Shown here piece after piece: positions 1-44,034 of a DNA stretch of 64,000 nt. Every line of letters starts with the position of its first letter. Positions within the stretch are counted from its first letter, which is position 1. The stretch is taken from contig NC_059426.1 of assembly GCF_021028975.2 (NCBI RefSeq), positions 71,796,001-71,860,000 on the forward strand, read 5' to 3'. The position numbers and the translations under genes are program-made. The DNA is from Sphaerodactylus townsendi (taxonomy: Eukaryota). The notes below the pieces were generated by a model. That model saw only the letters and a program-made list of their open reading frames with translations. It ran no database searches and had not been told where the DNA came from.

Positions 1-58
1 TCTAGACGAGAAAGACAACAACTGAGCACCAAGGAAGGACTTAAGTTTTTGATGTTAC

Positions 59-3000
59 CTTCGAAGTCTACAAGGCCATCTCCATTCAGATCAACATCTT
101 TGAGAATCTCATCTACCTCATGGTAATTCAGCTGCTGCCCCAAGAGTTTGCGCATGGCTTCCCGTAGCTCAGCTACGCTGATTTGTCCATCTCCATTTGT
201 GTCAAACTAGAAGGAAATGAAAAGTTATTAATGTACCTTGTTGACTCTTCTGCCATATCCACACCTCCAGGCTCCTGTACTGCCTCACTGTGCTGAGACT
301 AATGGACAGCATCATTATCCACTGTTCCTAACCTCAATCAATCAGATGTGTCAATGGAACTCTCTGGGGGTTTAAGAACAACCCCAGCCTGTGCAGTGAG
401 TATGACATAGAACAAACACTTCAGTATCAGCCACATTACAGTGGATACTTACACCACAAGGCCAAAATCATGTGTACATTTTACTATGCTTTAATTATTA
501 CCCTAAAATATTCACTAGCTTTGAATGATGTGTTACCACTATTAACAATTTGGAGAGGACTGCTTTAAAGGTTACCACACTCTCTCCAGCTAGTGTGGAA
601 ATTCATGCCATCTTGTGATTACACTTGGTATCTGCTTCTCAGGTGTCCTTCCAGCCAACCTCACCATCATTTCCTTTGTCACCCTTCCTCTAGTCAAGGG
701 AAATGTTGTCAGTTTCACTAAGCCAGTTTTACCAAAAGCCAGCCCCATGTGCACACAGACAAGTGTGATCGTTTGATCTGGTTTTGCTGCCTAGAAATAT
801 TATTATTGTAGTGGCAGACAGAAGTACAAACATGTATTTATGTTAGAATGTCCTCCAGTACCCCTACACACACTCTTGTACACTCTAGTGCTAATCTCCT
901 TGTGTCCTAGAGATGGGCTAAATGTGGCTCTTACCTCCCGGAAGGCATCCCGCAGTTCTTTCACCCCAATCATGTCTGCAGTTTCTGCCAGCATTTTGGG
1001 GCCCATAAGGTCCACAAAGTCATCGAAATCTACCTTTCCTCCAGCTGTAGATATAGAAAGACTATTTCAGAACTGGATAACACCAGGTTATTATACTTAA
1101 GGCTGATTCACAGTCACCATCAGAGCTTCTTTAAACCTACAATGTAATTTCCTTAACTTCCAAATCACACAGTCTTGCTGACACTAGAGTGCTTATAACA
1201 AAGGATTCTGACCTCCATGAAAGCAAATCACCAGTGTGTTGATTCCAAGTTGGCTAGGTTTTGTCCTTGATAACAGTTAAAAGCTTACTTTTTCTTAACT
1301 ATCACACTTAACCCCTCTGCAGCTGTGTGATGCTTCTCTTGATGTAACATATCTGCACTATATACTTCAAAGGTCATTGGTGGGAGAGTGGAAGTCTGCA
1401 CAAGCTCCCAAGGGAGAAGCGAGGGGGAGCTGCACCCGGGGCATGCCTGCATCCTGCATCCTGTCTCCTGCCATGCCTCCCTCGCCCCAAAATACCCCTT
1501 CTCCGCCCTCACACGCCCGGTGAATTGTGCCCCACCCTGCCCTTTTGGCTCTACGGCACTGCAAGCTCCTCTGTATAGGAAGGATTTAGACATGCAAATT
1601 AATGGATCTTCTGAGCTCTTGGGTACAACTCAAAGATGGCTTGGGACTGTTTCCTCCTATACTATTCAGTTCACCAGAAGATCTGCTTCTGAAGCCCTGC
1701 TCTGTGCTTCTCAAGCCTTGCTCCATGCCCCAGCAGAGACATGGCATTTTCTCTGATGCCATCTCCCTCTGGAATGTCCCTCCCTCCTGCAGGTTTACTT
1801 GGCACTTACTTTACTTTCTTTCAAGCTGAAGCGTACATATTTTACCCAGGCTTTTAATTGGGTTATTTTATCAGTTTTTTTAATGGTCTGTTCGATTTTA
1901 TGGACAGTTTTTATGCTGTTTGCACTTAATGGCTTGTTTTTAATAACTTGTTTTTATGATGTTACATTGTTTTAATTGGACACCACCTAAAACAGGACTC
2001 TGCTCTGGCAGCATGGAAATATCCTAAACAAATAAATATGTTCTATCTAACCCCACCAGAGCAAAAGCTTCTTGATCATGGTTGTGCTAAACATGAGCAG
2101 AGAGGAATCAAGAATTACTATTGACCCTATTTACATATTGGGTTCTATACTCTTTTCCACTGAAAGATCCAAGCAAATTTTTAATTCATCCGCTGACACT
2201 TCCTGGACCTTCTTTGTTCTAGAATGCTCCTGTTGGGTCCTAGTGCCTGGCAACAGCCTTCCCATGCCCCCTCCCCACACACACGCACACTGATGCAGAC
2301 ACCAAGTCAAGCCCAGCAGGACAGCAGTGGCAAACCGCTCTCCCACTGGGCCTGTCAACAACCTCCCCCATTCCCCCCATCTTCCCATAGACCCAACACA
2401 CCGCTCATCCGCCTGCCAGTATTCCTGCTCGCCCACCTCCCTCCCAACTCACCACTCACTTGTCTGCTGCTTCTGCTATGCTCTTCTACTGTGGAAGAGT
2501 ACTACTCTCTTCTGCTGCACCACCACTGACCACTCTTGTATTTGGTGGAAAAGGGTATAGTGGACAACTATCTCTAGAACATATGTACAGACTATAATTG
2601 CTTCTTAATTCTATTCCAGTCAAATTAGTTCAACTGGGAAATGTTTTTTATTGTTTTGTTTGAACATCAAACCAGCAGAGCATCAATAAAAATCTACTTC
2701 CTTGTACTGAAAAAGGCACAGCTTGCTATGGCTAAAGGTCACCTTTCCCTATTGGACTGGTAAGTTTTGTTGCAGCTAAGGATCTGACACCTGCTCTCCC
2801 CAACAGTCTCTCAGGTACTGCTAGGGCATGCTTAATCAGTGCATAGACTTCTTGTTTTACATACATATGCATGTGGGTTAACTGCTAGTGCTAGCATACT
2901 ACATCACCTGGGCTATATGCCAAGTGAAGCACAGATCAAGGGATAGGGGAGTTTCCAGTGCTTATGAAGTGATGGAAACTCAGGACCAAATTACACATGA

Positions 3001-6000
3001 TGCTGGATTGCCGTGATTAAAACTACTGATTTTGGGGATGGAGGGCTTGATATAGGGCGTTTCCCCACGCTCCCCTATCCACCCTATGCCGCTCGCCCGG
3101 GCGTCCCCACGACCCTGCACTCTGCGCGGGGTCATCAAAAGGCCCCCTTTGCAAGAGCGGCAGGGATGCCATGCGCCGAGGGGGTGCGACAGCGGCAGCG
3201 TCGGGGCGGCTGCGCTGTCGCAGCCCCTCTCGTGGGGGGTGCTGAGGAACCCTGTGCTACTCTCCTCAAGTAGCGCGAGGCTTAAGGTAAGTGGGGAAAG
3301 GCCCATAGACTGTAGCTGTAGCATTAGGGAATGAGGAGGCTTAATCCCACCCCCACTCCCCTCCAAATACTATCTCCTTGGTAAAAAATGCTCCCCAGGC
3401 AATTTTTCACCCTGGGCAAGGAAAAGTTAGGCACAATATGAGTACCTGCCTTCTTTTCTACTTTTATAGGAAAGGGCATTTTCCATCAGAGAAGCTGTAT
3501 GGGGGTGAGGGAATTAACAGTCCTTCCCCCAGTGTTCAACACCAATCCATATCAGACCCACAATCAAGTGGATCCTTTTCAGAGTCATAAAATACATCCA
3601 GCAGCAACTGCCATTGCGAGTCAGGTGGGTGCAGCTGCTATGAGAGAAAGGGAGTGCCAGTGTGAGCAATCACTGCTGCTGCAAGCAGAGGGATGAGCAA
3701 GTGGGTGCAGCTGCCAGGATTGAAGGAATGGGTGGGTACAAACAACAGTAGCCACCAAAATTATGAGCAGTGGATGCATTAGAGGGTGGGTATATCCACA
3801 GCTGAAGACGAAGCCTGCACTTCCTAGTTTCCCGCCACCACCATTGGGAGGGGGGGCAGTCTGGGAGAAGGAGCATTTTTGCCTGTTCTGTTCTGCAAAA
3901 CACATTTTTTTCTTGAAATAAGGAACTGACAGCAATATAGTTGCCACTGTCTTATGGCTCCATTCTGCACTGCTCTGGTACCATAAGAAGTAGACTCCAT
4001 TAATATTGGCTGATGTGTCCTGCTGATAACACACATTGTTGTGAAGCACATCTGGATACAGAACAGAGACTTAGCATGTAATCTACTGTAGCATGGGACA
4101 GAAATATGAAGTCACTGCCATCAGTGGTGGGATTCAAATAATTTAACAACCAGTTCCGGTGGTGGGATTCAAATAATTTAACAACTGGTTGTTTACAAGC
4201 ACCATTTTAACAACCAGTTCTCTCGAAGTGGTGCGAACCTGCTGAATCCCACCACTGCTGCTAACTGTATGAATGGGTCTGTAGGAGCCACAAAGAAAAG
4301 GCAGAATGAATGAAGGCCAGACTGGAAAGCAAAAGTCACAATCCTTCCTCTTCCAGTAGTTCCAATATTTTTACATTATTAGACAGGCATGGGCCGTAGA
4401 TACAGGACTCCTCCCTATAATATAAGAACTTGGTCTGTAAGAGGGAGTTCCTGATAACTACTACAAGTGAGTCAAACCAATATTGGGATTTCCTTCAATT
4501 TGTGCTTGACATTGTCTTCCCACCTGATACACTGGTGGGCCAGTGACTATTATTAATGCTTGGATTAATGTCAGAGAACTTTAACTGAGGGAAGGAGATG
4601 AGATTGAGATGTTCTAATGAAAGGGCAGAGTAACAACAAGGACGAAGTTCACTACTATATGAGTGCAGGGTTGGGAGCAGTCAAAAAGATCCAATTGTTA
4701 CAAGACCAAGAGGAATGAGATGGTCAAAGTTAAGTATTGTTACCATTCAGTTGCAGCAATGGAAGATAGGGGACCAGAAGAAACAGTATGGACTAAACTG
4801 GATGCAACTGGAAATTAGTAAGCTGGCACAACCCCCAGTTCTGTAGGGTTTGTTTGGAGCATCAATATACTTAGTAGTAGTAGATACATACTGATCTGTT
4901 GAGAAAGTTCAATGAGTTCCATCTCAGTAGGCATGTAGCCCATAGTTCGCATACATTCTCCCAGGTCCTTGTAGCTGATATAACCATCATGGTCTTTGTC
5001 AAATTCCCGGAAAGCTTCTCTTAGCTCTGGAAGGAGAAGAGAGGCTGTAAGAAACATATTCAGTAACTTCCCAAGTCTGCTGATTACCCTTGCAAATCAG
5101 GAACTTCAGCTATATCTTGCAGACAGCGCATGACTACATGGGGAAACTGGGCAGCAGGATGAAGAATACACTACTTAGCAAATGCGGTATTGTGCTTCAA
5201 CAACATTCCTGTCTCATTTTGGAACTGGACCTGAAATCTTCTCTAGCGAGATAGTAGCTATGGATGTGTCTAGAAGAGCACTGGAGTTTCCTGTTTCAGG
5301 ACCTGATACATGGAAATACCCAAGTCTCATACTTGAGTGAAGCCAAGTCTCATACTTTCAAGAAGCCACACCTGGGTAAAGAGTACATGATGCAGAGATT
5401 TTTTAAAAACATATTTCCCTCATATTGACGGAACCATGATCAAGATCCTGAGGTTCTTCCAATCTGCAGTGTTAACTACCAAAAGGACAGCTTGGATGGT
5501 ATGCATTTTGCAAGGATGCCTAAATCAGCAAACCACCACTTTGGAAGTGCCTGGGTTGTCTTAGATCCCCTGGGCTAGTATTGCACCAAGCCATGAGAAA
5601 AAATGAAGTGGCATGGTCACTTATTGTGCAATGACAGTGGACAACAGCCCTGGCCTTCCATAGAGAAAAACACGGTGATGATGTTGGTCATGTTACCTTC
5701 GATCTCTTCTGGTCGCAGGTCTCTGTCCTGGCAAAAGAAGGAAAATAGAGACTGGTTTAAAAGAATAATAGCCCCACCCCTTCTGTGGCCTAGTACTGCC
5801 TGCCAAATGTGCAATGTCTTATGTACAAAGGAACTGAGAAGAAGACCCAGAAGGGGCGGCAAGCAGTTAGATAGAAAGGGCTGTAAAATTAGTGGCCGCT
5901 TTGTCCTTTCGTGTCACCTCTTGTCTTCCTTAGACTGATAATCTTCTCCAGCCTATTCCTTCTTAGAATTCTAGTCCCTTTCTGAAGCATGGTCCTTTGC

Positions 6001-9000
6001 ATATTTACCTGCACCACAAACTGTGTTCAGTAGAATTTATTCCTAAATCAACTTGCCCAGGATTTCAAATAGATGCTGCACCAAAATTTAGTCCCATGCA
6101 GTATCATTTCAAAATATGACTGCAGATGATGGGAAGTCCTCGTTCACTGCAGAAAAAAATCTGTGAAGGCTGCCCTTCTAGTCACAGATTCTTGATGTGA
6201 AGATGTATGTCCTGTGGTTGAAAGCTGGCATAGCAGAATGGTTAAAACCCGGAGAAGCTAATCAGGATGTCCATCATTCAAACCCGGACTCTGTCATAGT
6301 CTCATTCTTTCCTAACCTTCCCCTACACACCTCATCCTCAATATTTATGTATTAGATTTTTACACTATCCTTCCTCCAGTATGGAAAGTGTGTGTGTGGG
6401 GGGGGGGGATGGGAAGTGTGGGGGGGGATTTTATTCTTACAATATCCCTGGGAGGTTGGTTAAGGATAGAGATAGTGACTGGTCCAAAATCACACATAAG
6501 CTTCACTGCTGAGCCGAGGTACAACTCAGGTCTCCCCAGCTCTAGAGCAACACACTAGCCACTATATCAATAACCCACCACACTAATTCACCTTAAAAAG
6601 TTGTTGTAAGGATCATAGCAAGATAATGGATGTGAAGCACTCTGAACTCTTTAGAACACTATATTACTACTAAGTATTATTCATCGTTATCATCAAAACA
6701 GACCATTTACTATCTCTTATCATATGGAAAAAGGGTTCAATGAAGCAACCTCTCTACTATCCAGTCTCCATGCAAGAACAGATTTATATGCTATGGCATT
6801 AATATTTTTTTCACAAATATATGGATGAAACAGCTACTGCACATATCAACTGCCTGCTGCATACTTATGGCACTTATGTTGCACTTAATATGCTAAAGTG
6901 TACATACTTATTCCTATGTACAGATTACATTCCATGGAGGAAATGGTGATGCATGAAAAAACCTGAACTATACTTCAGTACAGAATTCTCCACTGAGTAG
7001 TGGGAGGAGGTAGCATAGTGGCTATGTGCAGTGGCAGAACATAGAGACCAGACTGTGGTAGAGACCATGATGTGATGTGCTGTATAAGAAATGAGATGCT
7101 GGAAGCACAATACGTACGATCTGCGTGATGGCGATGCTCTGGCGCAAGAAGATGCAGGCTGGCCCCACCAACCCGTGCAGCACAGAATAACTCTGCAATG
7201 CTGGCTGGTGTGTGCCATCAATCATATCATCCAAGTCGCTGGTGGAGGCTGGAGAGCCTGGAGCTTCTGAAGGATGCTTATTCTCCTGTGATATAGCTTG
7301 CAATTAGCTAAATCTGGTTACAGTGCCTCATCCCCTCCCCCCCATTTCCCACAAGGCCTGCATGAAAGCCAAGGTCATAACCCCCGGGATATTCTAAGGA
7401 AGGGATAAAGACAAAGAATTGGAGTGCACTCAAACAGGTACCTGAAAAGCCTTATATTCCTCCCCTGTGAATTTAACTCACTGACTCAGCACCATAGCCC
7501 ACACTGTAAATACTACAGTTAGAGCTGCACACAGTCTCCATGAGTAACTAATGGCAAACCATTAGCAGCCATCACACCTTAATCCATGTTGGAGTGGAGG
7601 TATCCACCTACCCTAAGATTGAAGCCATGTCATTCCCCTCTGTTCGTAGCACCCACACACGTAAGCCAGTGTGCTGTACCAGTGATAAGTGATGTACACT
7701 ACAAATAGCACACACAGAAATGTGCCATAGCAGCAAACATTAGGATACAATACAGTAACCATATACACACATAGCACCAGCTAAGACCTACACTAACATT
7801 CCTTTGCTATTTCTGTCTGTCAGCGGAGGTCTACATTATTGATTTAAACTCACTGAATAGTCATCAACTGTACATGGAGATCTGTATGGATCTTTAGCAG
7901 AGAATTCTCAGCATGTTTCCACAGTATGACTGCTTGAGGGGTGATTCGATCATGAATAGTATAAAACTGACCTACATATATAGGGTAAATATGCCTCTTA
8001 TTTTCTCTCAATTAAAAACCAAATAACCAAGTGGCGAGTGCTCACTCATTCTGGTGAGTAAAATGCCATGTCACAGCTAGTGATTGACATGGATTCAGTT
8101 ATCTAAAACACTTATCAGAAGCTTTTCTTCTTTATGGAGCTCAAGTTACATAAACAAAGCATGTAAAATAAAATACACTAAAGGCCAAATTTTAAATCAC
8201 AACACATTTAAATCACAACAAATTTTAAATCACAACCCAGGACTGGTAGGGAGCTTAATCAAATGCAGGCCTAAATAAAACTGTCTTTAAGTGCCTCTTA
8301 TGGACTGAAAGTAAGGGGGCCAGACTCACTACCTTAGAAGTTGCTCCATAATTGTGGGGCTGCCCCTGAAAAAGCCATCTTTTGTGTACTCACCAAATAA
8401 GCTTCTTTGATTGATGTGAAATCAGGAGGGTCTGTCCCTTTGATCCTAAGTCCCAGGGAGGAGTGTATGAGAGAAGGAGATCCTTCAGATATTTAGGCCC
8501 CAAGCCAAGTAGGTATCATCAGCCCACATGGCAAAGACATTTCCCATTTCAGGCTCTAAATTATTTGTATTTCTAAATAGTTGCAAGAGGTGAAACGAAA
8601 TTCTCCTCAACATATGGATGGAGGATACAGATGTGGCTACTAACTGGCTGAACAGCCAGCATGGTTAATTGTTCCTTAGTAAATGATCATGTGAATTTAC
8701 CCACTGCCTTTCACTCATTCCCTTCACTTCTTTGAGAAATATACACATGTTGCTACACAAGTCTGCCTTGACACATACAAAAGCAAGGCCAATCTATTTC
8801 CTGGAACTGGCACTCATGCATGTATATATTGCTTGTTATTTTCTCTCTTGCCCAACCTTGCCTCAGGTTCACCAATATGCCCTGGAACTGACTCGTGTAG
8901 TGGCTTGATAATAACACAGTCAAGATTACTGAGAAAAGGACAGAAAATTACACTAGCATTAACCTACTCAGATCTCACTCCTATCCCAATGTTTCCAGTA

Positions 9001-10455
9001 TACCAAACTCAAACCTCTGTCTCTGTAACATGCTTGCCTCAGAAGCACAAACTAGCCACAGGACCCATACTCACCCCCCTTACATCCCCAAGAATGACAC
9101 ATATCCAAAAAAACACATAAATATGTCCTATCACCTACAAATAGCCTGTCTGAGTCATAATGTATAATAATATTTAATAATCTGAAAAGTCACAATAGTG
9201 ATAGTTCTAGCAGTGCTTTTTTTTTCTTTTTGTAGCAGTAGGACGGGTACAGAATACTAGCATCTTTTGGGAAGCCCAAAGGATCTGGGGTGATTTTGTG
9301 GAAATCAGGGCGAGTATATATTTGAGTACTGGTGCCTTTTATTTTTTTTTTTAAGAAATAATATTGGTTCTACAAGTCAGAATCTGTCTTTCTATTCACA
9401 TTCTCTGAATTACAATTGAGTTCAAGGGCCTAAATAATTAACTCGGAGGACCAGATCTAGATCCTGGTCTTCCACTCCTCCACCCCATTCTAGAATGGCC
9501 AGTATCTTAATTTAATTATCAGTTAACATCAACATTTTCCAGGGGATACTTATTTGTTTCCTTCCCTGGAACAACTGACAACATTATTTCCCTCATATCC
9601 TGTCACTGATACTGCATCATATCATCTCTACTCACTACGTGATGTTCTTAAAATTCATATACATGTATAAACAGGCACTGATACACTAACGCATGCCCAG
9701 CTCAATTCATGCTTTGGCACCGATATACAAAAAAGTACTTATACAGCATTTACAGAACTCTTCTCGGCTTCAGGTGCTGAAAAACTGACTCTTAAGAACA
9801 TACAGAAATACAGAAAATGCCATGAATAGCCATAATCAGTCCCTGCAGTGTCTGCATACTCTTGAACATGGGAACACCCGTCTTTTTGTACCTCAATTTA
9901 CCCCAACTCAGGCCTTTTAAAAAACCTACTAAAAAGGATGGGGTATGGAGAGAGAAAGACACAGAATAATACTGAGTCTTGCTTGAATTAAAAATGACAT
10001 AGATACTGATCTAAGGAGGACGAATTGTAGGCAAGGAATGGAAAGAAGGGACCTTTTGGGCCAACTGCACACAGGCAAATACTTGGTCTCACTCTATTAA
10101 TCTAGTGTCTTAGGGTGAAAACCTGGGGGTGACTGAATTTGCCACAGTGCCACATGAACCTGAGATTGGGGGGTTGAGGATGTGGTACTGGAGAGGTCTA
10201 GCCATCAAATACCACATTTTTGCGGTGTCTTCTTGGGCACAGCAGAGCCTTAAACCCAAGACTTTGGCCACTGACAGGGATCAACATGGAGGGTCTGAGA
10301 AATGTAGGAAGTATAGACAGACACATGATGAACGAGCGACACACAGGAACACAGCAGGGCTCAACATAATGATGAAAGGGGCCACCCTCCCTCCCTCCCT
10401 CCTCCCCTCCTACCTTGGAGAGCCGCCTGCCTGGGGTTTTGGTGCAGTTGCCCAT
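59..10455 (-). CDS. CABP2: Calcium-binding protein 2 (CaBP2), myristoylated L/S isoforms; 3'-partial
   Basis: Exons on the - strand, all GT-AG and in phase: 10414-10455 ([14 protein letters not shown]; MG myristoylation start), 7118-7285 (L-isoform exon, ...[18 protein letters not shown]), 5697-5727 ([10 protein letters not shown]), 4892-5026 (EF1 [12 protein letters not shown]...QQI), 935-1044 ([10 protein letters not shown]...RDAFRE) and 59-206 (EF3 [14 protein letters not shown]4 [11 protein letters not shown]). The shortened, disabled EF2 loop 'QQITGGKVDF' is the CaBP2 pattern; CaBP1 has QQINMNLGGHVDF. Adjacent to GSTP1 as in mammals. The final exon is outside the window. Confidence 0.93.
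3055..3304. mobile_element. PIF/Harbinger-like MITE, 250 bp, CpG-rich
   Basis: 14-bp TIR gggcgtttccccac / gtggggaaaggccc (1 mismatch), 3-bp ATA duplication on both sides and an internal palindrome. Confidence 0.7.
4122..4257. mobile_element. hAT-like MITE with a duplicated left end
   Basis: TIR cagtggtgggattca / tgaatcccaccactg. The first about 34 bp are tandemly repeated. The TSD is degenerate. Confidence 0.6.
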
Positions 10456-10639
10456 GGCTGCTAAGGCCCTCCCATCCTGCAGAGCCTAGTATGGGGCTGG
10501 AGGCGGCTGGCACTGATGGCAGGGTGTTTTTTAATAGTAACAAGTGATTCTCTTCCTGGGAGGTTTAGACGCTTTGGGGATTTTCAGGGTTTTTATTGTT
10601 GAATATCTCCAGAATATTAAGGGAAAGTGAAAAGAGCGG

Positions 10640-10906
10640 GGGAGGGGGAGGGCGTGGGCCAGAGCCATAATCCTCAGGATTATACGCAACTCAATCATAG
10701 ATGGTGCTAAAGGAGAAAATGGGGGACCAGCAGCTCTTCCTTATGACTGTTCAGACTTGCCACACTCCACGAAGCAGAGTCCTACCCCTGCTTCGTCTTT
10801 CTTGCTTCCATTCCAAAGCCCCTATCAGGCTTAGACATACAGGCAGTCATCAAGGATTATGGCCCACCAGCATCTCCCCTCTCCAAGAGTAGGAAGGCCA
10901 TAATCT
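10640..10906 (-). promoter_or_regulatory. CABP2 proximal promoter with OTX2/CRX-type TAATCC sites and a GC box
   Basis: Palindrome ATAATCCT-C-AGGATTAT at 10667-10683, GGATTA at 10854-10859, TAATCT at 10901-10906 and GGGGGAGGGCGTGG near 10645. These lie about 200-450 bp upstream of the ATG at 10455. Confidence 0.5.
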
Positions 10907-12769
10907 CCTGTGACAATCACAGAGATTTTTTTCAAATCTTTGCTCTAGGGAGTGGCTGCTCTTGCTGAGCTCTGACAATGCTGTTGGGCGGGGGAAGGGT
11001 GAGTGGGAAACGAGGTAGGGGGCATACAGTACCCAGAGTGTCAGTCAGACTTAGTGGTTGGCTGCAATAAGTGAACCAGCTAGTAGAATCCACTGTATTT
11101 ATAGACTCATAGGGTATTATCAGCAGTGACATTAAGAACAACTTTTAATCTCTCATGCAGAACTTGTGAATGTTGTTAACATAGGATAAAAACGGGAAGA
11201 GAGTCATTTGAAATTCAAGTATAAGCACTGATCTTAAGAACACTTTAATTTGCTTTACAGTCAGATCTGGGAAATTAAATCTATGAAAGCAGCCAGGGGT
11301 TCTACAGGGTAGTTTTTAAATCACTATTTAGATCTGGTCACCTTTCTTAGCACATTTGCCTGGGCTCACTTTCCTTGAAAACCTCCAAAAAATAAAAGAA
11401 CTCCATTATTTCTTTTGAAGTGCTTGAAGCCCTTTTAACATGTATTTCAAATTTCCCCCACAAAATTGGTATGATAAAAGCCTTACTGTTCTGAGCATGA
11501 AGGGTCATTATTTCTCTGCCTCACTACCTTACTGCATTGAACAGTAGCAGAGATGACAGCATCACATGACCTTTACCTCTCCTTTAAAAAAATCTAGCAC
11601 ACACAAAGGCCCAGAAATCATGGAGAGGTTGGAGAGGTTTCTCTATGTCAATCCATTTATGAAAATTAGACATGCTTTCAATTTCTCCTGAACAAAGCAG
11701 ACAAGTGTTTAGAATTTAAGGGAAAATGCCAAAGAAAATTTTCAGCCTGACTCATGTATTCAACAGCAGGTGGAACTTATAAAGCCTTCATCACTATTTG
11801 AGCTTTCCTACCTCCTTCTCCCTCAGCTTTGCGGTATGCATCTATGCATGGTGGATGGGTTCCAAGCCCTGCTGGGTCCATCCCTTTCCAGATTTGTGCC
11901 ATCCGAGAACTGGTAACCCACATCCTTAGCAGTTGACACTAAGATGTGGCATTAGAGACATGAAGAGACCTGCATGTGTGGCTGCTGTCCTGAGGGAAGT
12001 ACTGCTGGCTAGTAGTCAATGGCTGTGCCCTTGCTGAGTTTTAGATGTGCTTGCCCTACCTCCAATGCCACCTCTTAATGCTCATTAGTAAATGTGTGGG
12101 GCTTTTTCTCCTAGTTGCTGCTCCACAGTGGCAGCCAATCAGGGCTGGCCTGACCATATAAGTGAGTTATAGTGCACCAGACTTTAATGGGTGTCAAATT
12201 ACATGGAAGTGAATTTTTCTCTATTTAATGTGTTGTAGTTTATTTTTCTCTGTTCTGAACATAGGTGTATGCCAAAGTAATAACTTCCTACAGCACCCAA
12301 ATCCTTTGGGGCTAGTCCTACAGTCACCTGCTATCTCCAACCTCCCCTAATTTTTGTGTCTTTGAATGACCATTGTGGTGTGTGTTAAATATATTATGGC
12401 TTGGTTCAGCTCAGGAGGCTTCATTAAAGGAGCAGGCTGGTATGATGTGGGTTGCCGCATTACAAATGAGTTCCTTGGGGATTATTTACACACACATTAT
12501 CTCAGTCATTGTTATAACAACCATGTACAATCAATATGTCCAGGTTAGTTGCTTTCTTTCAAGGCTTCCTCAAAGGCTGTGGGGATGGCAAAGAACCTTC
12601 ACTGGTGCTAACCTTCTAGGGCTGCTAACTCCTGGTTGAGAAATTCCTGGAGAATCGAAAGTGAAGCCTGCGGAGGATGGGGTTTGTGGAAGACAGGGAC
12701 CTCAGTGGGATATAACATAGAGTCAACCCTGCAAAGCAGCCATTTTCCCCAGAGGAATTGCTCTCTGCA

Positions 12770-12970
12770 GTCATAGAATCATAGAGCTGGACAGGACTAT
12801 ACAGGCCACCTAGTCCAATCCCTGGTTCAATGAAGGATCAGCCTAGATCACCCCTGGTAAATATATTTTAATATTTTTTATTCAGCCATTGCTTGAAGAC
12901 TGCTCATGAGGGGGAGCTCACCACCTCCCTAGGCAGCTGATTCCACTACTGAACAAGTCTTACTGTAAAA
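12770..12970 (-). mobile_element. CR1 LINE 3' fragment inserted in another repeat
   Basis: catagaatcatagag microsatellite tail followed by a typical CR1 3' end (ctagtccaatccct...ggggagctcaccacctccctaggcag). Confidence 0.55.
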
Positions 12971-13431
12971 ATCTGGAGATCGGTTATATTTCTGGAGGAC
13001 ATCTAGGCCCCTCCTGGAGGCTAGTAACTATATAGCCTTGATGCCTAAATTACAGATTTCAGGCTTAGGAGGTTTCCCAACTGACTTCCCTTGGATCGAA
13101 AGGGATGGACAGGATTATGTCATAAGCAAGGGCCCCTTTTCAAGGCCTGGAGTTCTACTTACACCTCTGTCATGGACATCAGTATTTTGCTCTGGGGTGG
13201 AAAACTTGCTCATCAGCCATATGCTTGAGGGTTTAATTTCCTACAGAAACTGGCTGGAATCCTGCTACAAAAGCCCCTTAATCAGAGGGGAATATCCCTT
13301 ATTTCAAAACATCCCACTTACGTAGAACCCACAACACAGTTATCCCCCCTTTCAACCATTACCTTGTATTTTGATATCTTCTCTGTTACTTTACAATGTG
13401 TCCTATGCCCCTTTCCCCTCACACCAGTTAC

Positions 13432-13776
13432 CTGCCCAAAGACAGAGTTGAGAATAGGCTCCATCTCCCAGAAGCTTGGACATCCTTCTGTGTGAGATGA
13501 ATTAACTCTTCCTTCTGCTCCTTGTAACGGCTCATCCTTGGGGCTGGCTCCAGCCATTTTGTCGTCTACTCCGTGGTGGGTGCCAGACAGGGCCACAGAC
13601 GGAGCTGTTGGTGCTGCTTCCAAAGTGCTCTTAGACCTGGGCTGCTGCATGAGCAGCTTGTCTTCTTCTTGGGTCCGATTGCCTGTCCTGCAGAAATGGC
13701 CACTCTTGGACCGCTGGTGCAAGCCACTTCGAGAGAGAGCACGGGATGGCTGCAATTCTGGTGCCTCACTGCTCAT
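13432..13776 (-). CDS. CABP2: Putative alternative first coding exon of CABP2 (caldendrin/CaBP4-like N-terminus, 115 aa; a second in-frame ATG lies at 13806)
   Basis: Open frame MSSEAPELQ...FWEMEPILNSVFGQ ends exactly at a CAG|GTAACT donor in phase 0. That phase matches the phase-0 acceptor of exon 5697-5727 ([10 protein letters not shown]). The final residues resemble the equivalent junction in caldendrin (...PMLSSAFGQ|DRSL) and CaBP4 (...PLLNRVFGK|DREL). Confidence 0.7.
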
Positions 13777-13895
13777 GCGTTGGGTCTCCCGGAGAAAAAA
13801 GAACATGTTGAGACTTAATAAAGGGCTGCTCTTCTCTCTTGAAGCTTTTGGTACCCCTCTGCCTTACCCTTTTAGTAAGACTTAATTCACCTTCA

Positions 13896-14183
13896 ACTGA
13901 GCCCTGTGGAGCAGAGTGGTGAGCTGCAGTACTGCAGTCAAAGCTTTGCTCACAACCTGAGTTTAATCTGGATGGAAGTCAGTTTCGGGTAGCTGTCTGA
14001 AAGTTGACAGCCTTCCATCCTTCCGAGATGAGTAAAATGAATGTCCAGCTTGCTGGGGATAAAGTGTGGATGACAATTGCAAACCACTATGTAAACACAG
14101 TCTGCCTAGCAAACGTCGTGATGTGGCGCATTCCATGGGTCAGAAATGACCCAGAGCTTGCACAAGAAGCTACCTTTACCTTT
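13896..14183 (+). mobile_element. Sauria-type tRNA-derived SINE
   Basis: tRNA-like head (tggagcagagtggtg), (ACCTTT)n tail and near-perfect TSD aattc(a/t)ccttca. Confidence 0.7.
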
Positions 14184-16389
14184 AATTCTCCTTCAGACAG
14201 TTTCTATTCCTGCTGGCCCCATTTCCATGTCTGCCTGCTATGTCTCACTACAATCCTGCCTTCCTAAGTCTTCTCTTGCGGTTGTGCTTCCACACTGCTG
14301 TCTGTAGCCCACCTTCCTGCAATGTTTCCTCCTTGTAGCCAAACTATTCTGAACTGGCACACTACTCTTGTACTTTCCTCACATACAGTTTCTTGCTTGT
14401 ATTCTCTCTCTCAAACACATACTCCCCTCCCCTCCCAGCTGATTGTCATGCTTTGAAATTCCTGGTTCTGAGGTTCAACATACACCCTTCTATATTTCTT
14501 CCCCTTTCACTCCCTGTCCCACTCCACCCTACAGTCTTCTTTCCCTCTTCTTCCTCCTTCTCAGGCTGCCTCTTTGACTTGTTCCTCAGCTCCTTTCTCT
14601 CTACCTTTCTCTCTCTTCTTTTGCTCACTTCCTTTGCTCCTGGAGGCACCTTTACTCTTTGCTCTCGGCCTAGGCCTGTCCCCTGCAAATCTTCTTAAGA
14701 GATCCACCCCTGTGCTCCACAGATCCCCAGACTTGCATGGAATAAGGAGGCATCTGCTTCTCCAACTGCTCTCCCCCAGCCTACCATGCAAACTTAATCA
14801 AGTCATCTTATTATTGCATGCAGTGAGATTGAAGGAGGAGGATAGAGAGGGAATCTGAGCTTATTAGGTCAGACATACGACCCGGCTTGGATCCGTTTTT
14901 CACTAATGATACAAACAAGGTAAAACAACCCCCAGCAGCTGGAAACCCAAGAGGCCGAGACACACAGATAGAGCAGCAGGAGGATTCCCTGGTTTCTCTG
15001 GTACTCACCTGTCAGAAGGAAGGCAGGAAGGAAATAAGACAGCAAAGATGCCTTTGGGATTAAATGAACTTGTTTCATGTCTTTCACCTCTTCTTCACCA
15101 CCTTACAGATACCCCACCACCATTAAATTGATTTTCCTTCCTCTGGGCCCCCTTTAGTCTCTCCTCAGCCACAGTTCTGAGGACTTTCCTTCCTCCCTAC
15201 GCCCTCTGTATCCATTCCTGTGGCTTTTTGTTTCAGCCCTTTAAGACCTCTTCCCCAACATACCCCTCAGCCAGATCCTGATCAGTTTGATAAATTGGGC
15301 CCCACCTGTGGTACTTGGTGCTTCCCCAGTCCTGAGGATGACAGACACGAGGGACCCTGGCAAAGCTGCCACCAGTGCTGCTGCGCAGACATCTCATGAT
15401 TTATTCAATACCAAATTGGCTCAGCTCCAGCAACGACAGTAACTGGACCCCACCTAGTGCAGACAATGCCAAGACGCACGGGCTGAGACTCAACACTCTT
15501 GCAGCTCAGGAAACATCAGAAAGAATTATCTGGGAAATAAGCCCTGTTCTCTCTCCCACAAGGGGATAGGAAATATCTTTCTTTCCTAGAGCAGATTAAA
15601 TAACATATTTTCTTGTAGAGAATATCAACTTTCCTATTGGGTTATTACTGGAGGCAGGAATGTGTCTCCTGTTTCTTTAACAGTGGCACAGTGAGCAGAA
15701 AGATCAATAACTTTTTCATCACTGTCTCCAAACTAGGAAAGCGTCATCTACAGAATTGATGCCTATCAGGGATTTTCCTCTACTATTATAATGCTGCCAA
15801 AGGCATGATGAAGTCACATACTACCACATACTAGGGTGCTGGAAACAAAATGACATATCTAATCAGCCAGAAAATGTACATCCCAACCACACTGTATCCT
15901 TTCCCTGACAGTCCCCTAAATACCATTCAAAGACAGTATTATAGCATGATATCCCATGCACATGTGTCAGAGGAGGGTTAATGGATACTTTACTTCTTTG
16001 AGTGAGATAAGGAAGGATTATGAGGAGAGTGGTGTATTCCAGCTGTGGAAATGAAGGGGCACAGCAATTAAAGGTCAATTAAAAAGGAGAAACAACATTA
16101 AAAAGAAAAGAGAACAAGTTACAAAAAATGGGATTTTTTAAAAGGAAGAGGCAGCAGACATGCATGAATTCACCTCCCATTTGGCACAATTTAGCATATC
16201 TGGGATTGTGCCTCTCTCACATACCACAGGCTGGAAAGTAGTCACGTCTCACTGTTCTGTTGATGGATTCTAAATGCAGAGCTCACAAGCAGCAATGGAT
16301 GGAAACTGGCATATACTGTATCTTTATTGACCACCACTCATTAACTTCAGTTTGAGACCCACAGAAAAGAACAGGTTCCTATGACCAGA

Positions 16390-17600
16390 TTGTTTGTCAG
16401 CAGAGTTTGACTTAGTTGATCACACCATCTTGACTAACAGCCTTGTCACTGTGGGGATTCAAGGGACAGTCTTACAGTAGCTGTGCTCATTTCTCCAGGG
16501 TCAGGGACAGAAGGTAGCCATTGGTGAGAGGATTTCTGTTCCTCACTTGTTGGTGTATGTAGTCCCACAAGGGGCGATTCTATCACCAATATTGTTTAAC
16601 ATCTTTATGCAACCCCTCTCCAGGTTAATCTGAGAGTTTGGTCTGGCCTGTCATCTGTATGCTGATGACACCCAGCTATATCTGATGATGAGAGGTCATT
16701 TGGAGGCTGCCCCAGATGTTTTGGCCAGCTGTTTGGAGGCCATAGTTCGATGGATACAAGAGAGATCACTGAAACTGAATCCATCAAAGATGGAGGACCA
16801 GTGTGGGTCAGGTGGGGAGTGCCAGCTGCCAACCGTGGATGGAATTCAGCTTAAAACGGCATCTTTCATTAGCAGTCTCGGTGTGCTCCTGGACTGAACT
16901 ATGGAGGTCCAGGTAGTGCACACAGATCATATGATATCTTTTCATCTGCACCAGGTGAAGTAGCTTGTGCCCTGCCTTGTTCAGTCTGATCTTGCCACAG
17001 TAATCACGCAACAGTCACCTTCAGATTAGACCTCTGCAACATGCTCTACACAGGGCTACCCTTGCGCCAGCTCCAGAAACTCGTTGATCCAAAATGCAGT
17101 AGTGAAACTCCTGACAGGCCATGATGGGCACCCATCCATCCAGTGCTCTGCCAGCTGCATTGGCTCCAGGTGCTTGTACTTACATATAAAGGTTCAAGGT
17201 GCTTGTACTTATGTATAAAGCGCTTAACAGTCTGGGGCCCGCGAGTCTTAGGGACGGTCCCTCCTGGAACATTCCCCAAAGAGCACTTAGATCTGCAAAT
17301 AACAATTTACTGCTGGTCCCTGGCCCCAGAGACATTTGGCTGCCAGCAGAATATCTCTGGGGTCACGGACCATCAGCAAGTGGTTAATCACAGATCTAGG
17401 TGCTCTTTGGGGAATATTCCAGGAGCGACGGTCCCTAAGATACATGGGGCCCAGACTGCTAAGGGTTTTGTGCCTAAACTTTTTCAGCCCTGCCTGGCCC
17501 CAGTGGAACACTCTGCCTAATGAAATCAGGGTCCTGCAGGATCTTACATAATTCCACAGGGCCTGCAACGAAGAGCTGTTCCACCAGGTGTATGCCTAAG
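16390..17600 (+). mobile_element. Degenerate L2 LINE ORF2 fragment (RT and C-terminus) with an internal fold-back duplication
   Basis: RT remnants (VPQG..ILSPILFNIFM, LYADDTQLY, LKLNPSK) and LHWL..VLVL.YKAL..LGP..L. Many stops and frameshifts. Confidence 0.8.
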
Positions 17601-18344
17601 GCAGCCAAAATTACCATCTGGCCTCCTTCTCCCTCTTTTCCTCCCCCTTCTGTTTCCCTTCTCCCTCCTTTGTTTTCTTCCCCTCCCCCCTCTTTCAATT
17701 TTTTCCCTTCTTATTTCTTGATTACCTGTCCTGTGTCATGACACACCCTTAAAGAATAGTTGTATTTCTCCTGGATTTATTAGATTGTTAGAATGTTTTT
17801 AAAACTTTTAAATGGTTTGCTGTGTATATGTATTTTAGTAGTATGATGTTAGCCACCCCAAGCCTGGAAGGTGGGGGTGGGGGTGGCCTATCAAATCAAA
17901 CTAATTAAATTCAATTGGTATCAGAGGCACAAGCACCTTACTAATCTATTTCCCTTCTAAATGAACTGATGCTTTAGGGATCCAATTCAAACTGCTGAAG
18001 AGACATGGAGAAAATTATTATACACTTTCTTCCTCTGTGGGCTGTGGCTGTCCCCAGTGGCAGAGCATCTGTTTGGTGCAAGTTCCAGGCTCAATCCAAA
18101 GTATCTCCAGTAAAAAGGATCAAATAGTAGGTGATGTGAAAAACCTCTGACTGAGACCTGGGAGTGCTACAGTCCATCAGGGCTAAACTAGTCTAGTCAT
18201 GACTTTTTAAACAAGTTGGGTTGGAGTTCTTCAGACCCGACACTCATGCCCCTGAATCAAAGGGCAGCTGCTGAAAACTAATTTCCTAGGCATCACAGGA
18301 TCAGGACTGTGGCACAGGGAAGAGAAAAGGCTTTACCCCCACCC

Positions 18345-18593
18345 CAGAGGCGTAGCTATGTGGGGGCGCCATGCACCAGGTGGATGCCGTGGGGGGTGGA
18401 AAATCACCGTCCCCGCCCCTTACCCCACCTCTCCAGACCTGGTCCCACACCCCCAACTTGCCCCGTTTTCAGCTGGCAAAAAAGGTAAGTGGGGCAGTGC
18501 TGCAGGAGGTGGTGTCGTGGGGGGCAGGGCTGCGAGGGGCGGTGCACAGGAGCCATTTTGCCCCAGGCACCATTTTATCCCCCTACGCCACTG
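18345..18593. mobile_element. hAT (Tip100-like) MITE
   Basis: TIR cagaggcgtag / ctacgccactg and a perfect 8-bp TSD ccccaccc. Confidence 0.75.
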
Positions 18594-21500
18594 CCCCACC
18601 CCCGCCATTTTGCAAACTCAAAACAGTCTCAGAGGGGCAGTATTTGGCCTGGCTGTACATGTCTGTTTTGGCTACCAAATTAGATAATACTTGGTAGACA
18701 ATGGTCTGACTTTATAAAATAACTTTATGTGTTGAACCATTTCCCAGTCCTATAGTTTGGGACCCCTGTGAAACCCAAGACTGTACATACTTAGTCAATT
18801 CACATTATTAATTTCACAAATTGCAGTTAAGTACAAGAGCCGCATGAAATTGACAAGCTTTGTTTGTTGTTGTTTTAAAGATCATAATCTCCAGGGAGCT
18901 GGGACATGCTGCTTTAGTTATTATGAAGCATCTAGTATGCTGCTAGATCCTGTAGCCCCAACCCAGCAAATTTTGGTTGCATTGAGTCTCATTCAAATCA
19001 ACAGTATGTTGTGATTAATGTATGTTGTGATTAATTTTTCACATTGAAATCAAATGTGACCAATTCCAACTGGATTGGAACCTAAAGTTTATTTGTATAT
19101 GAATTGAATTAATTGTAGAAACATTATGCAACATACAATTTGGAAATTTAAAAAATGTGTGCACATGGTGGTAAAATGAGCACACACAACCTTCTCCCCC
19201 CCCCCCCGATTTTAAAAAGACATAACAATTAATAATTTGCCAAAGAATCTCCCCAGTTCAAACTTTAAAGCACAATCATTGTGAACTTCCTGAATTAAAC
19301 GTTTGGATTCCAAAGTAATGCTGTTTGTCATCAGTCAAATTGAACATAGTTCATTATTAGATCAATCATCCTACTTTCCCCCAATGGAGACACCATCTGC
19401 AAACCAAAAACAAGCTTGGGCAAACAAATGAAACAGATGGGAAAGGAAGTAACAATGCCCAAGAGAGAGATAGAAGCCAATGCAAGTTCATGAATAGGTT
19501 ACCTCTCACGAGGCATCATATCTCCAAGGTCTTGGCTGAGGCTGTGCTATGTCATAACAACAGCTTGTCCATCCATGTCCCCAGCTAATAATGCTAGAGT
19601 AAAGCAGTGGTTGGTCACCTCCTCTTCACCTACTATTGCTGCAGTTATTCCTATCAACAGCATTACTTTGCACCGGTGGTGTGCTTGGAATTTTACAGAA
19701 GGGAGCCAGTCCCCACCCAACTTTGCACTGTAGAATGGAGTGGGAAAGACAAAGGCATAATATAAGGTAACGAGATTAAGGGTGGCTAGTAGAAGAGGAT
19801 TAGTCATAGAATGTAGCAGTTCAGGAAAGGGTTTGCAAGAACTGGCTTTAGGCCAGTCAGACGTCTCAGAGAAGATGTCTGAGAGGGGATATGATTGAAG
19901 TCTATAAAATTATGCACGGCATCATGTGGGGGTGAAAATTTTTCCCCCCAGACTCCCTTCCCAGGGACAGGGGCGGATTGGGGTGTAGGCGGGTCGAGGG
20001 CAGGGGGTACAGCAGGCAGTTTCCTCTCCCTCCATCCCTGATTTACAGGCCACCTATTCCCACCAGAACCTGCCCATCAATTGAAATCTTCTGCACAGGC
20101 TGGGGAGGGGGCAACTAGACAGGGGAACAAATCACTACCTCTCCCTCTTACAAAGGCATAGCAAGCTTCCTCTTTCTCCCTGTCCTTTCTTTAAGGGCAG
20201 GCCAGTGTAACATCCATTATGGTAATCTAATCTAGGTTCAGGTGGGTAGCCCTATTGGTTTGCAATAGAACCTTAAAGATCAACAAGATTTCCAGGGTAT
20301 AAGCTTTCAAGAGTCGAAGCTCTCTAATCTAAAATTCACCAAAGCATGAATGACAGAAGTCAGGTCTTTGTGCTGTCCTTGTGTTGTTTCTAAGCAGTTA
20401 GAACTCAAACAAAATAGACTCAAACAAAAAAGAGACAAAAATACAAAAGTCTATAACAGCAAATCTTGTTTATACTTCTACAAACAAAATGTAATACTGG
20501 AACAGAAATGTTTTTAATCAAATATGACAGATTGCCAAGATGGAAAAACTGGCCTGTATTATATAATCTTGGGAAGGGAATATATGTAGCTGCATCCACA
20601 CATAGCAATTATTACCTGTTGTGAATTTATTGCTGAAGTGAATGCAAAGGAATTCATAGCAGCAATGGAACATTCACATAGAGGTTTTCGATGTGCTTTT
20701 CTTGGTCAGTATTTCATGGCTGCCATTTCCTTACACCACTGGAAGACGCTTGACTTTGCCAACTTAAGTGGTAGTTGCCACATCCCTATAACATTACTAA
20801 TGTTTCTAAAATTCTGGTAAAATGATAACCGGCTAGGACTGCAAAGTTTCTGGAAAGGTTCTAGCAATGTGTTTGCAAGGTGATCTTGGGCCATTCACAC
20901 ACTCTCAGCATAACCTACGTCACAGGGTTGTTGTGAGGGTAAAATGGAAAAGAGGGAATGTACGCTGCTTTGGGTCTTCATTGTGGAGAATGGTGAGTGC
21001 CAGATAAAGTAAATTAACAAATAATGCTTCCTCATCTCTGCCAATTATGTTGCTCTTAAAGGAAACCTCTCTAGAAGAAAACATGCCTAGACCAAGCATT
21101 TCACAAAATCTAACAACACTTGGCAAATACAGACTACCAGTTTACCCAGCGGAAAAATGTGTGGAAATTTACTTTTTAAAATGTGTGTTAAAATGTGGCA
21201 ATACAGACAAAGATGGCTGGCAAGGTTGCTCCACTCTAGTTATTGATTCATCCCATTAAGTGAAAGACATTTCAGTTGTTCCCATTGTTCTACCCATTGA
21301 ATTCTGTCACTATTTCTGGGGTCTTTCTCTGCAGCCTGCAGATATAGATAGGTGCAAAGGAGATATAAACAAGTGCCTATTGAGGATAATTTAAATCACT
21401 GATGGACAGCCTCTACCACAATTCTTCCCACAGTTGGACTTTGCTTTATTTTTAAAGTTTTGTCATGGATAATAAATAAAAGACAGGGAATGTCACATAA

Positions 21501-25821: not shown

Positions 25822-30796
<4,975 letters not shown>

Positions 30797-37510: not shown

Positions 37511-44034
<6,524 letters not shown>

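Follow-up and report, generated by a model that had tools for sequence, protein, structure and literature searches.

The closest described counterpart of the exon considered here is found in the mouse, for which Yang et al. 2016 (PMC4725724) reported three Cabp2 forms, one of them, CaBP2-alt, using an exon 1a "like caldendrin". According to the available part of that paper, exon 2a belongs to the L form only, a statement made for CaBP1 with CaBP2 said to be similar, and CaBP2-alt is the form dominantly expressed in the hair cells of the mouse inner ear. An extra non-coding 5' exon in mouse is mentioned in the accessible portion of PMC6424336, and in zebrafish cabp2b has been described as the hair-cell paralogue (PMC3547026, seen as an extract). 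Caldendrin itself, the exon 1a form of CABP1, is portrayed in the available text of PMC4110014 as having a highly basic, proline-rich N-terminus with PxxP, and this N-terminus is stated, in the accessible part of PMC2873350, to be encoded by mammalian genomes only.

In the present study we analysed a stretch of 64,000 nt of Sphaerodactylus townsendi DNA (the window), in which a minus-strand exon at 13432..13806 is, as we hold with good confidence, the coding exon 1a of gecko CABP2 and the likely orthologue of the CaBP2-alt exon, predicted to be spliced to the shared EF-hand exons and to yield a 274-aa calcium sensor without a myristoylation glycine that likely dampens Cav1.3 inactivation in ear hair cells. 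The translation (13806-13432) runs for 125 aa without a stop, with the terminal residues FWEMEPILNSVFGQ, from an ATG that has A at -3 and in-frame stops upstream. Its 375 nt keep phase 0 and are followed at once by GTAACT (13431-13426), i.e., a CAG/GTAACT donor, as the original prediction of a 115-125-codon frame ending at such a donor had it. The predicted richness in S/G/A/P/E/Q (50%) and the distance of about 3 kb from the MG exon (2,977 nt down to the start of the MGNC exon at 10455) proved equally correct. Among the six ATG frames of at least 125 codons in the window, this is the sole one with an in-frame AG/GT[AG]A donor after codon 125. Searched alone, exon 1a hit none of the Pfam families and had no usable match in the ESM Atlas; Rfam gave no match in window positions 1-20000.

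Downstream on the same strand lie exon 1b (MGNC..., 10414..10455), which starts the S and L forms and supplies Gly2; exon 2a, specific to the L form and read from the sequence (7118..7285); exon 2b, the first shared exon, behind a CAG acceptor (5697..5727); and the shared exons with EF1 (4892..5026), with the shortened EF2 plus linker (935..1044) and with EF3 and EF4 (59..206), the final exon being located beyond the window, in L029. When exons 1a>2b onward are spliced by coordinates, a product of 274 aa results, with canonical splice sites and 0 internal stops, and its residue 2 is Phe; a third, long CABP2 form without Gly2, made through an alternative coding 5' exon, was thus rightly predicted. 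The core of this product is identical to that of Paroedura picta CABP2 at 146 of 149 positions and is of the CABP2 type (EF2 shortened, no NMNL insertion), and CABP1 and CABP4 sit at other loci of the same genome. In the core trees the nearest rows are all sauropsid CABP2 and no starred clade contains the window core, so far as these sequences go a weak support for CABP2 as a whole. A fold search with residues 127-273 only, exon 1a thus being outside it, retrieved calmodulin/centrin-like matches. The same window holds, on the plus strand, exons of a Pi-class GST (27883-30793) and NDUFV1-type exons (Complex1_51K / NADH_4Fe-4S, 37955-43822). We take GSTP1 and NDUFV1 to be the neighbours of human CABP2, an arrangement which the gene order of the window matches. 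As a separate observation, position 12 of the EF1 loop is Asp in the gecko exon. CaBP1 and zebrafish CaBP2 likewise carry Asp, mouse and human CaBP2 Glu; Asp at this position is of the Mg type according to the available parts of PMC2873350 and PMC13659490.

Exon 1a occurs once in the genome, and its region shows 0 differences over the full length to contigs of runs X2 and X3. The related organism X5 spans the region gap-free with 16 differences in 1,016 nt; among the differences listed, five fall in the 375 nt of the exon and seven in about 500 nt of single-copy flanks, so that on this count the exon is not better conserved than its flanks. Three of the five listed exon differences are amino-acid changes, and the exon differences lie at codons 13-98, sparing the start and end motifs and introducing no stop or gap. 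Frame and end motif, whose disruption in relatives would have spoken against the exon, are on the listed differences intact there as well. A contig of run X1 covers the exon 1a start at 13760-13813 only, with 49 of 54 letters. In a second X1 contig exon 2a is joined to 2b, which hints that the run contains spliced RNA; that run X1 is RNA is our guess. The 13432>5727 joint was absent from the matching contigs and reads, X1 contributing seven short pieces that are uninformative on expression. We also considered a splice acceptor situated 7 nt ahead of the ATG, where the X1 match begins (13813), and regard it as unlikely: X5 changes position 13815, and by eye the loose letters of X1 resemble the genomic sequence upstream.

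Within this genome, CABP1 has the order 1a-1b-2a-2b (G000:C13:35.34-35.37 Mb), and the gecko CABP2 exon occupies in its own gene the same slot of the four-exon 5' layout as the caldendrin exon; the supposition of an ancestral layout is supported as regards the order of exons, its two promoters being putative. CABP1 exon 1a has 177 codons and ends with LHPILSSVFGQ before GTAAGG, and the first exon of CABP4 ends with LNTVFGK before GTGAGT. The junction segment of CABP2 exon 1a (SFWEMEPILNSVFGQ, 13432..13476, minus), a predicted amphipathic helix just before EF1, is homologous to these two ends and to the mammalian CaBP2-alt exon end. For the comparison of exon ends, a 12-mer anchored at the junction was used with the last residue dropped, and 7,301 12-mers served as the null, a pool that includes a few true exon ends and is therefore conservative. 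The gecko 12-mer reached scores of 35-42 with the four long CABP1 forms compared and of 28 with the CABP4 of the alligator, in agreement with the predicted homology to the caldendrin and CaBP4 ends. Long CABP1 forms with the same exon end are named in booby, frogs, lungfish and catfish, and these non-mammalian records do not fit the mammal-only statement in the available text of PMC2873350.

How far the gecko form may be called "caldendrin-like" differs between its parts. It shares with caldendrin the exon position, the exon end PIL.SVFGQ (the last ~12 residues, a predicted helix), the lack of a myristoylation glycine and a disordered tail. In contrast, caldendrin is a product of the other paralogue, CABP1, and its basic, PxxP-bearing tail has no match in the gecko: the exon 1a tail has a net charge of -1, 7% Pro and a single PxxP, which four other squamates lack, whereas lengths of 222-337 aa, a net charge of +9 and 1-4 PxxP were measured for the tails of three long CABP1 forms. 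The name therefore applies to position and end and not to the tail. CaBP4 has a homologous end, P[LF]LN.[MV]FGK, before the shared exon, but it is encoded by a different gene, 2.5 Mb from CABP2 on the same contig; a scan by pattern turned up no exon of the MGNC type behind the first exon of CABP4, and since it also missed the shared exon of that gene, this negative is weak. Several further observations were made along the way. The caldendrin-type exon 1a of CABP1 (L015:9458 onward; G000:C13:35370458, minus) contains a poly-Q run near its start and lies 14.6 kb upstream of exon 1b. The paralogue search recovered CABP1, CABP2 and CABP4 loci and, among 20 matches, no clear CABP5 locus, which may be missed, unassembled or lost. 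An intronless calmodulin-like frame of 149 aa is present at L001:1534 (G000:C6:7.257 Mb), with a weaker EF-hand match ~8 kb away.

The same exon was readily found in other squamates. Among 349 candidates of a protein search with exon 1a, all four matches were named CABP2 or CABP2-like, with 43-75% identity over the whole exon (75% to that of Paroedura); these cluster representatives belong to a gecko, a wall lizard, an anole and a snake. With the cluster members added, ten protein rows from seven squamate species were obtained, all of which join exon 1a straight to the shared exon 2b, the squamate CABP2 records being computed gene models. Long models such as those of Paroedura picta (XP_077177188.1), Anolis carolinensis (XP_062823183.1) and Podarcis muralis (XP_028593643.1) have the same exon, start, end and join; they are records of other species, and the 125-aa sequence of the window is absent as such from the protein collection. 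A search with 43 residues across the junction returned three lizard proteins only, the query being too insensitive. The original prediction of an under-described product did not hold up: the mouse isoform was described in 2016 and has a curated RefSeq entry, and models exist in seven squamate species. As a new gene product, the gecko exon 1a product is no discovery. Literature listings, with subscription papers, figures and supplements outside the search, contained no title on a reptile CaBP2-alt.

Conservation among the squamates is concentrated at the two ends of the exon. Of the first ten columns, MFFFLRETQR (codons 1-10; 13777..13806, minus), nine are invariant among the window, Podarcis, Anolis and the snake, with one sequence per lineage, compared with 16 of 103 columns in the middle of the exon (Fisher p 3e-6); seven of the last 12 columns are invariant as well (p 0.002 against the middle), the Fisher windows having been chosen after looking. 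Protein P0138 has the identical MFFFLRETQR and a core 87% like that of the lizards, and protein P0046 combines an MFMLIRE start with the exon end LYPIVDSVFGQ; neither of the two takes a firm place in the core tree. Starts of a related kind are seen in the CABP2 of falcon and cuckoo (MFF[LF]FRGPQRR), in salmonid cabp2b (MFMIIPK) and in a mormyrid (MFMFIRE). The mean hydrophobicity over the first five residues is 0.98-1.08 for MFFLFRG, MFFFFRG, MFMLIRE, MFMFIRE and MFMIIPK. An MF-hydrophobic start was found in 0 of 90 CABP1/4/5-type proteins, and no mammalian row among those compared has an MFFFLR-type start, which is also lacking in the trumpetfish cabp2a model. A full-text literature search for four start strings, with subscription papers, figures and supplements beyond its reach, yielded no papers. 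In the bird CABP2 models P0015, P0016 and P0161 the start motif is kept and the exon end has drifted (PPAFQQ, PTFGQ). It may also be mentioned that the L exon contains ACIFLR (7118-7165, minus), whose hydrophobic-F-L-R pattern is common to MFFFLR; chance or a common function is possible.

We tentatively propose, as an idea with clearly less than an even chance of being right, that the MF-hydrophobic-R start is an ancient lipid-free anchor of hair-cell CaBP2, at least of bony-fish age, kept letter for letter in squamates and lost in placental mammals, and that the long-exon layout predates the CABP1/2/4 split. If true, this would contradict the 2010 mammal-only statement for the caldendrin N-terminus. 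The conserved block is situated at the very start of the frame, and the first ten codons may instead be held constant as a signal acting in the DNA or RNA, of a promoter or of a translation start, and not as a protein motif. Such an explanation, which concerns the motif and not the exon, seems to us unlikely, given that in birds and fish the letters vary and yet the chemistry is kept. The start motif is the one lead here that merits work at the bench.

In order to compare the gecko exon with its mammalian counterpart, we made use of a profile search over cluster representatives, the best 150 of which included a seal CABP2 whose upstream exon ends with ELEAQVQAAYGQ. A search with the seal exon gave 46 proteins among 158 candidates (mammalian rows), 44 of which have an upstream exon with a ..AAYGQ-type end; mouse isoform 3 (NP_001153725.1) and human A0A1B0GW24 are among the cluster members, with the exon end ELEAQVQAAYGQ. 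The forward primer published for CaBP2-alt (PMC4725724) translates to GPVKVGK, a peptide that among the proteins compared is confined to two mouse Cabp2 models, where it lies upstream of the mouse exon, and the reverse primer corresponds, by eye, to ELRPEEIE of the shared exon. With the forward primer just upstream of that mouse exon and the reverse primer in the shared exon, the alt form of the paper is the one ending in ..AAYGQ. Mouse CaBP2-alt resembles the gecko form in that the same gene has an exon 1a before 1b and 2a, joined to the DRELRPEEIE exon, with no Gly2 and with a predicted helix ending in ..[YF]GQ at the junction. The exons differ at their starts (MALPEG in mouse, MFFFLRETQR in gecko) and in length (54 and 125 aa), and hair-cell expression is demonstrated for the mouse form only.

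The exon may be real with a main product other than the predicted one, namely 1a-2a-2b, which would be longer, or a transcript reading through into 1b as in the bird model. Both the 2a and the 2b acceptor are in phase 0 to exon 1a; of the 44 mammalian models, nine splice 1a to the L exon, as against 20 that go to the shared exon and 15 of other or read-through structure, and the barbet P0016 and arowana P0022 models also use the L exon, while the cuckoo P0161 continues into MGNC. Against these stand the squamate rows, ten of ten of which join 1a straight to 2b together with the curated mouse isoform 3, and the assignment of exon 2a to the L form only in the available part of PMC4725724 (for CaBP1, with CaBP2 said to be similar). 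We consequently regard a different main product as quite improbable, and the direct 1a>2b join as the preferred one.

Whether the mouse CaBP2-alt exon is orthologous had been left open in the original prediction, and our answer, from primer location, exon position and junction score, is "very likely". The gecko 12-mer scored 16 against both mouse and human, a value reached by 0.12% of the null, with three identities of 12 to the mouse; against three fish cabp2 models it scored 13-33, against the falcon exon end -1 (4.6% of the null), barely over background, and against five other exon ends -8 to -21 (20-88% of the null). Outside the last 12 residues no convincing alignment was obtained between the gecko and mouse exons. 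On sequence grounds, the link between the two exon ends is real but thin. The small number of identities, the unlike lengths and the missing MFFFLR start in mammalian rows could be read to mean that the squamate and mammalian exons are of separate descent and have in common only their position and a donor-biased end. This is more improbable still, considering that, with the final residue left out, the score lies above 99.8% of the null, that the helices share the same register, and that CABP1, CABP4 and fish cabp2 all carry the motif at this very junction, which argues that an ancestral exon existed. We therefore keep to orthology of the gecko exon 1a and the mouse CaBP2-alt exon as very likely.

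Immediately upstream of exon 1a there is a high-copy interspersed repeat (approximately 13899..14200), beginning ~93 nt upstream of the ATG and with a contig depth more than 1,000-fold above single-copy. It has 3,631 candidate genome copies, 39 of the 40 scored being other places at 76-85% identity, and no tRNA was detected in it; it may represent a Sauria SINE. The repeat may lie in the 5' UTR or the promoter of exon 1a and could have altered the promoter. Further high-copy pieces were noted at 12617-12971, in the intron that directly follows exon 1a. That the gecko makes little use of an intact exon, the repeat having landed in the 5' region of the latter, draws on the nearness of the repeat and on the lack of excess conservation against X5 among the listed differences, but it is hardly credible for an exon with intact frame, start motif, end motif and donor, with X5 changes confined to codons outside both motifs and free of stops and gaps, and with 75% identity to the Paroedura exon.

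Taking the gecko exon as CABP2 exon 1a, a mechanism may be outlined. AlphaFold models of the Paroedura and mouse proteins give a calmodulin-like core and a disordered tail, in line with the disorder predicted for exon 1a, and a helix that ends two residues before the junction (Paroedura 111-122, pLDDT ~72; mouse 33-52, pLDDT 55-58), its hydrophobic face being in the same register in both; the N-terminal helix has a pLDDT of ~41. In the available part of PMC13659490, several CaBPs are described as having a single helix in their N-segment, and the N-segment of the L form as stabilising Ca binding. For caldendrin, the tail is said to fold back and raise Mg affinity (PMC4110014, available text) and to be required for PIEZO2 inhibition (PMC10919251, available text). 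Suppression of Cav1.3 inactivation is known for mouse CaBP2-L, and the accessible portions of PMC8417311 and PMC11668525 state that the alt form was neither compared nor used. The 1a>2b splice would follow the database models of relatives, and hair-cell expression would be expected by analogy with mouse and zebrafish. The shared core would, by analogy with mouse CaBP2-L, bind Cav1.3 and suppress its inactivation. Exon 1a would then act as a disordered spacer of ~100 residues between two constrained ends. The predicted amphipathic helix before EF1 likely substitutes for the helix of the L-form N-segment and tunes ion binding, and the hydrophobic-then-basic start is proposed to replace the myristoyl group as an anchor to membrane or partner. 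In sum, exon 1a would swap the pre-EF1 helix and the anchor and leave the channel-binding core unchanged.

CABP2 is known as the deafness gene DFNB93, and its most abundant transcript in the mouse cochlea is reported to be CaBP2-alt. Studies of gene therapy and of the biochemistry relied on the L form, the difference being called unknown in the available parts of PMC8417311, PMC11668525 and PMC13659490. The comparison presented here points to those parts of the alternative exon that have lasted across vertebrates, namely the helix of 12 residues that precedes EF1 and, in non-mammals, also the ten-residue start. These two segments would be natural targets for deletion or swap. Furthermore, the older view, as expressed in the accessible part of PMC2873350, of long first exons as a mammalian trait within the CaBP family is corrected.
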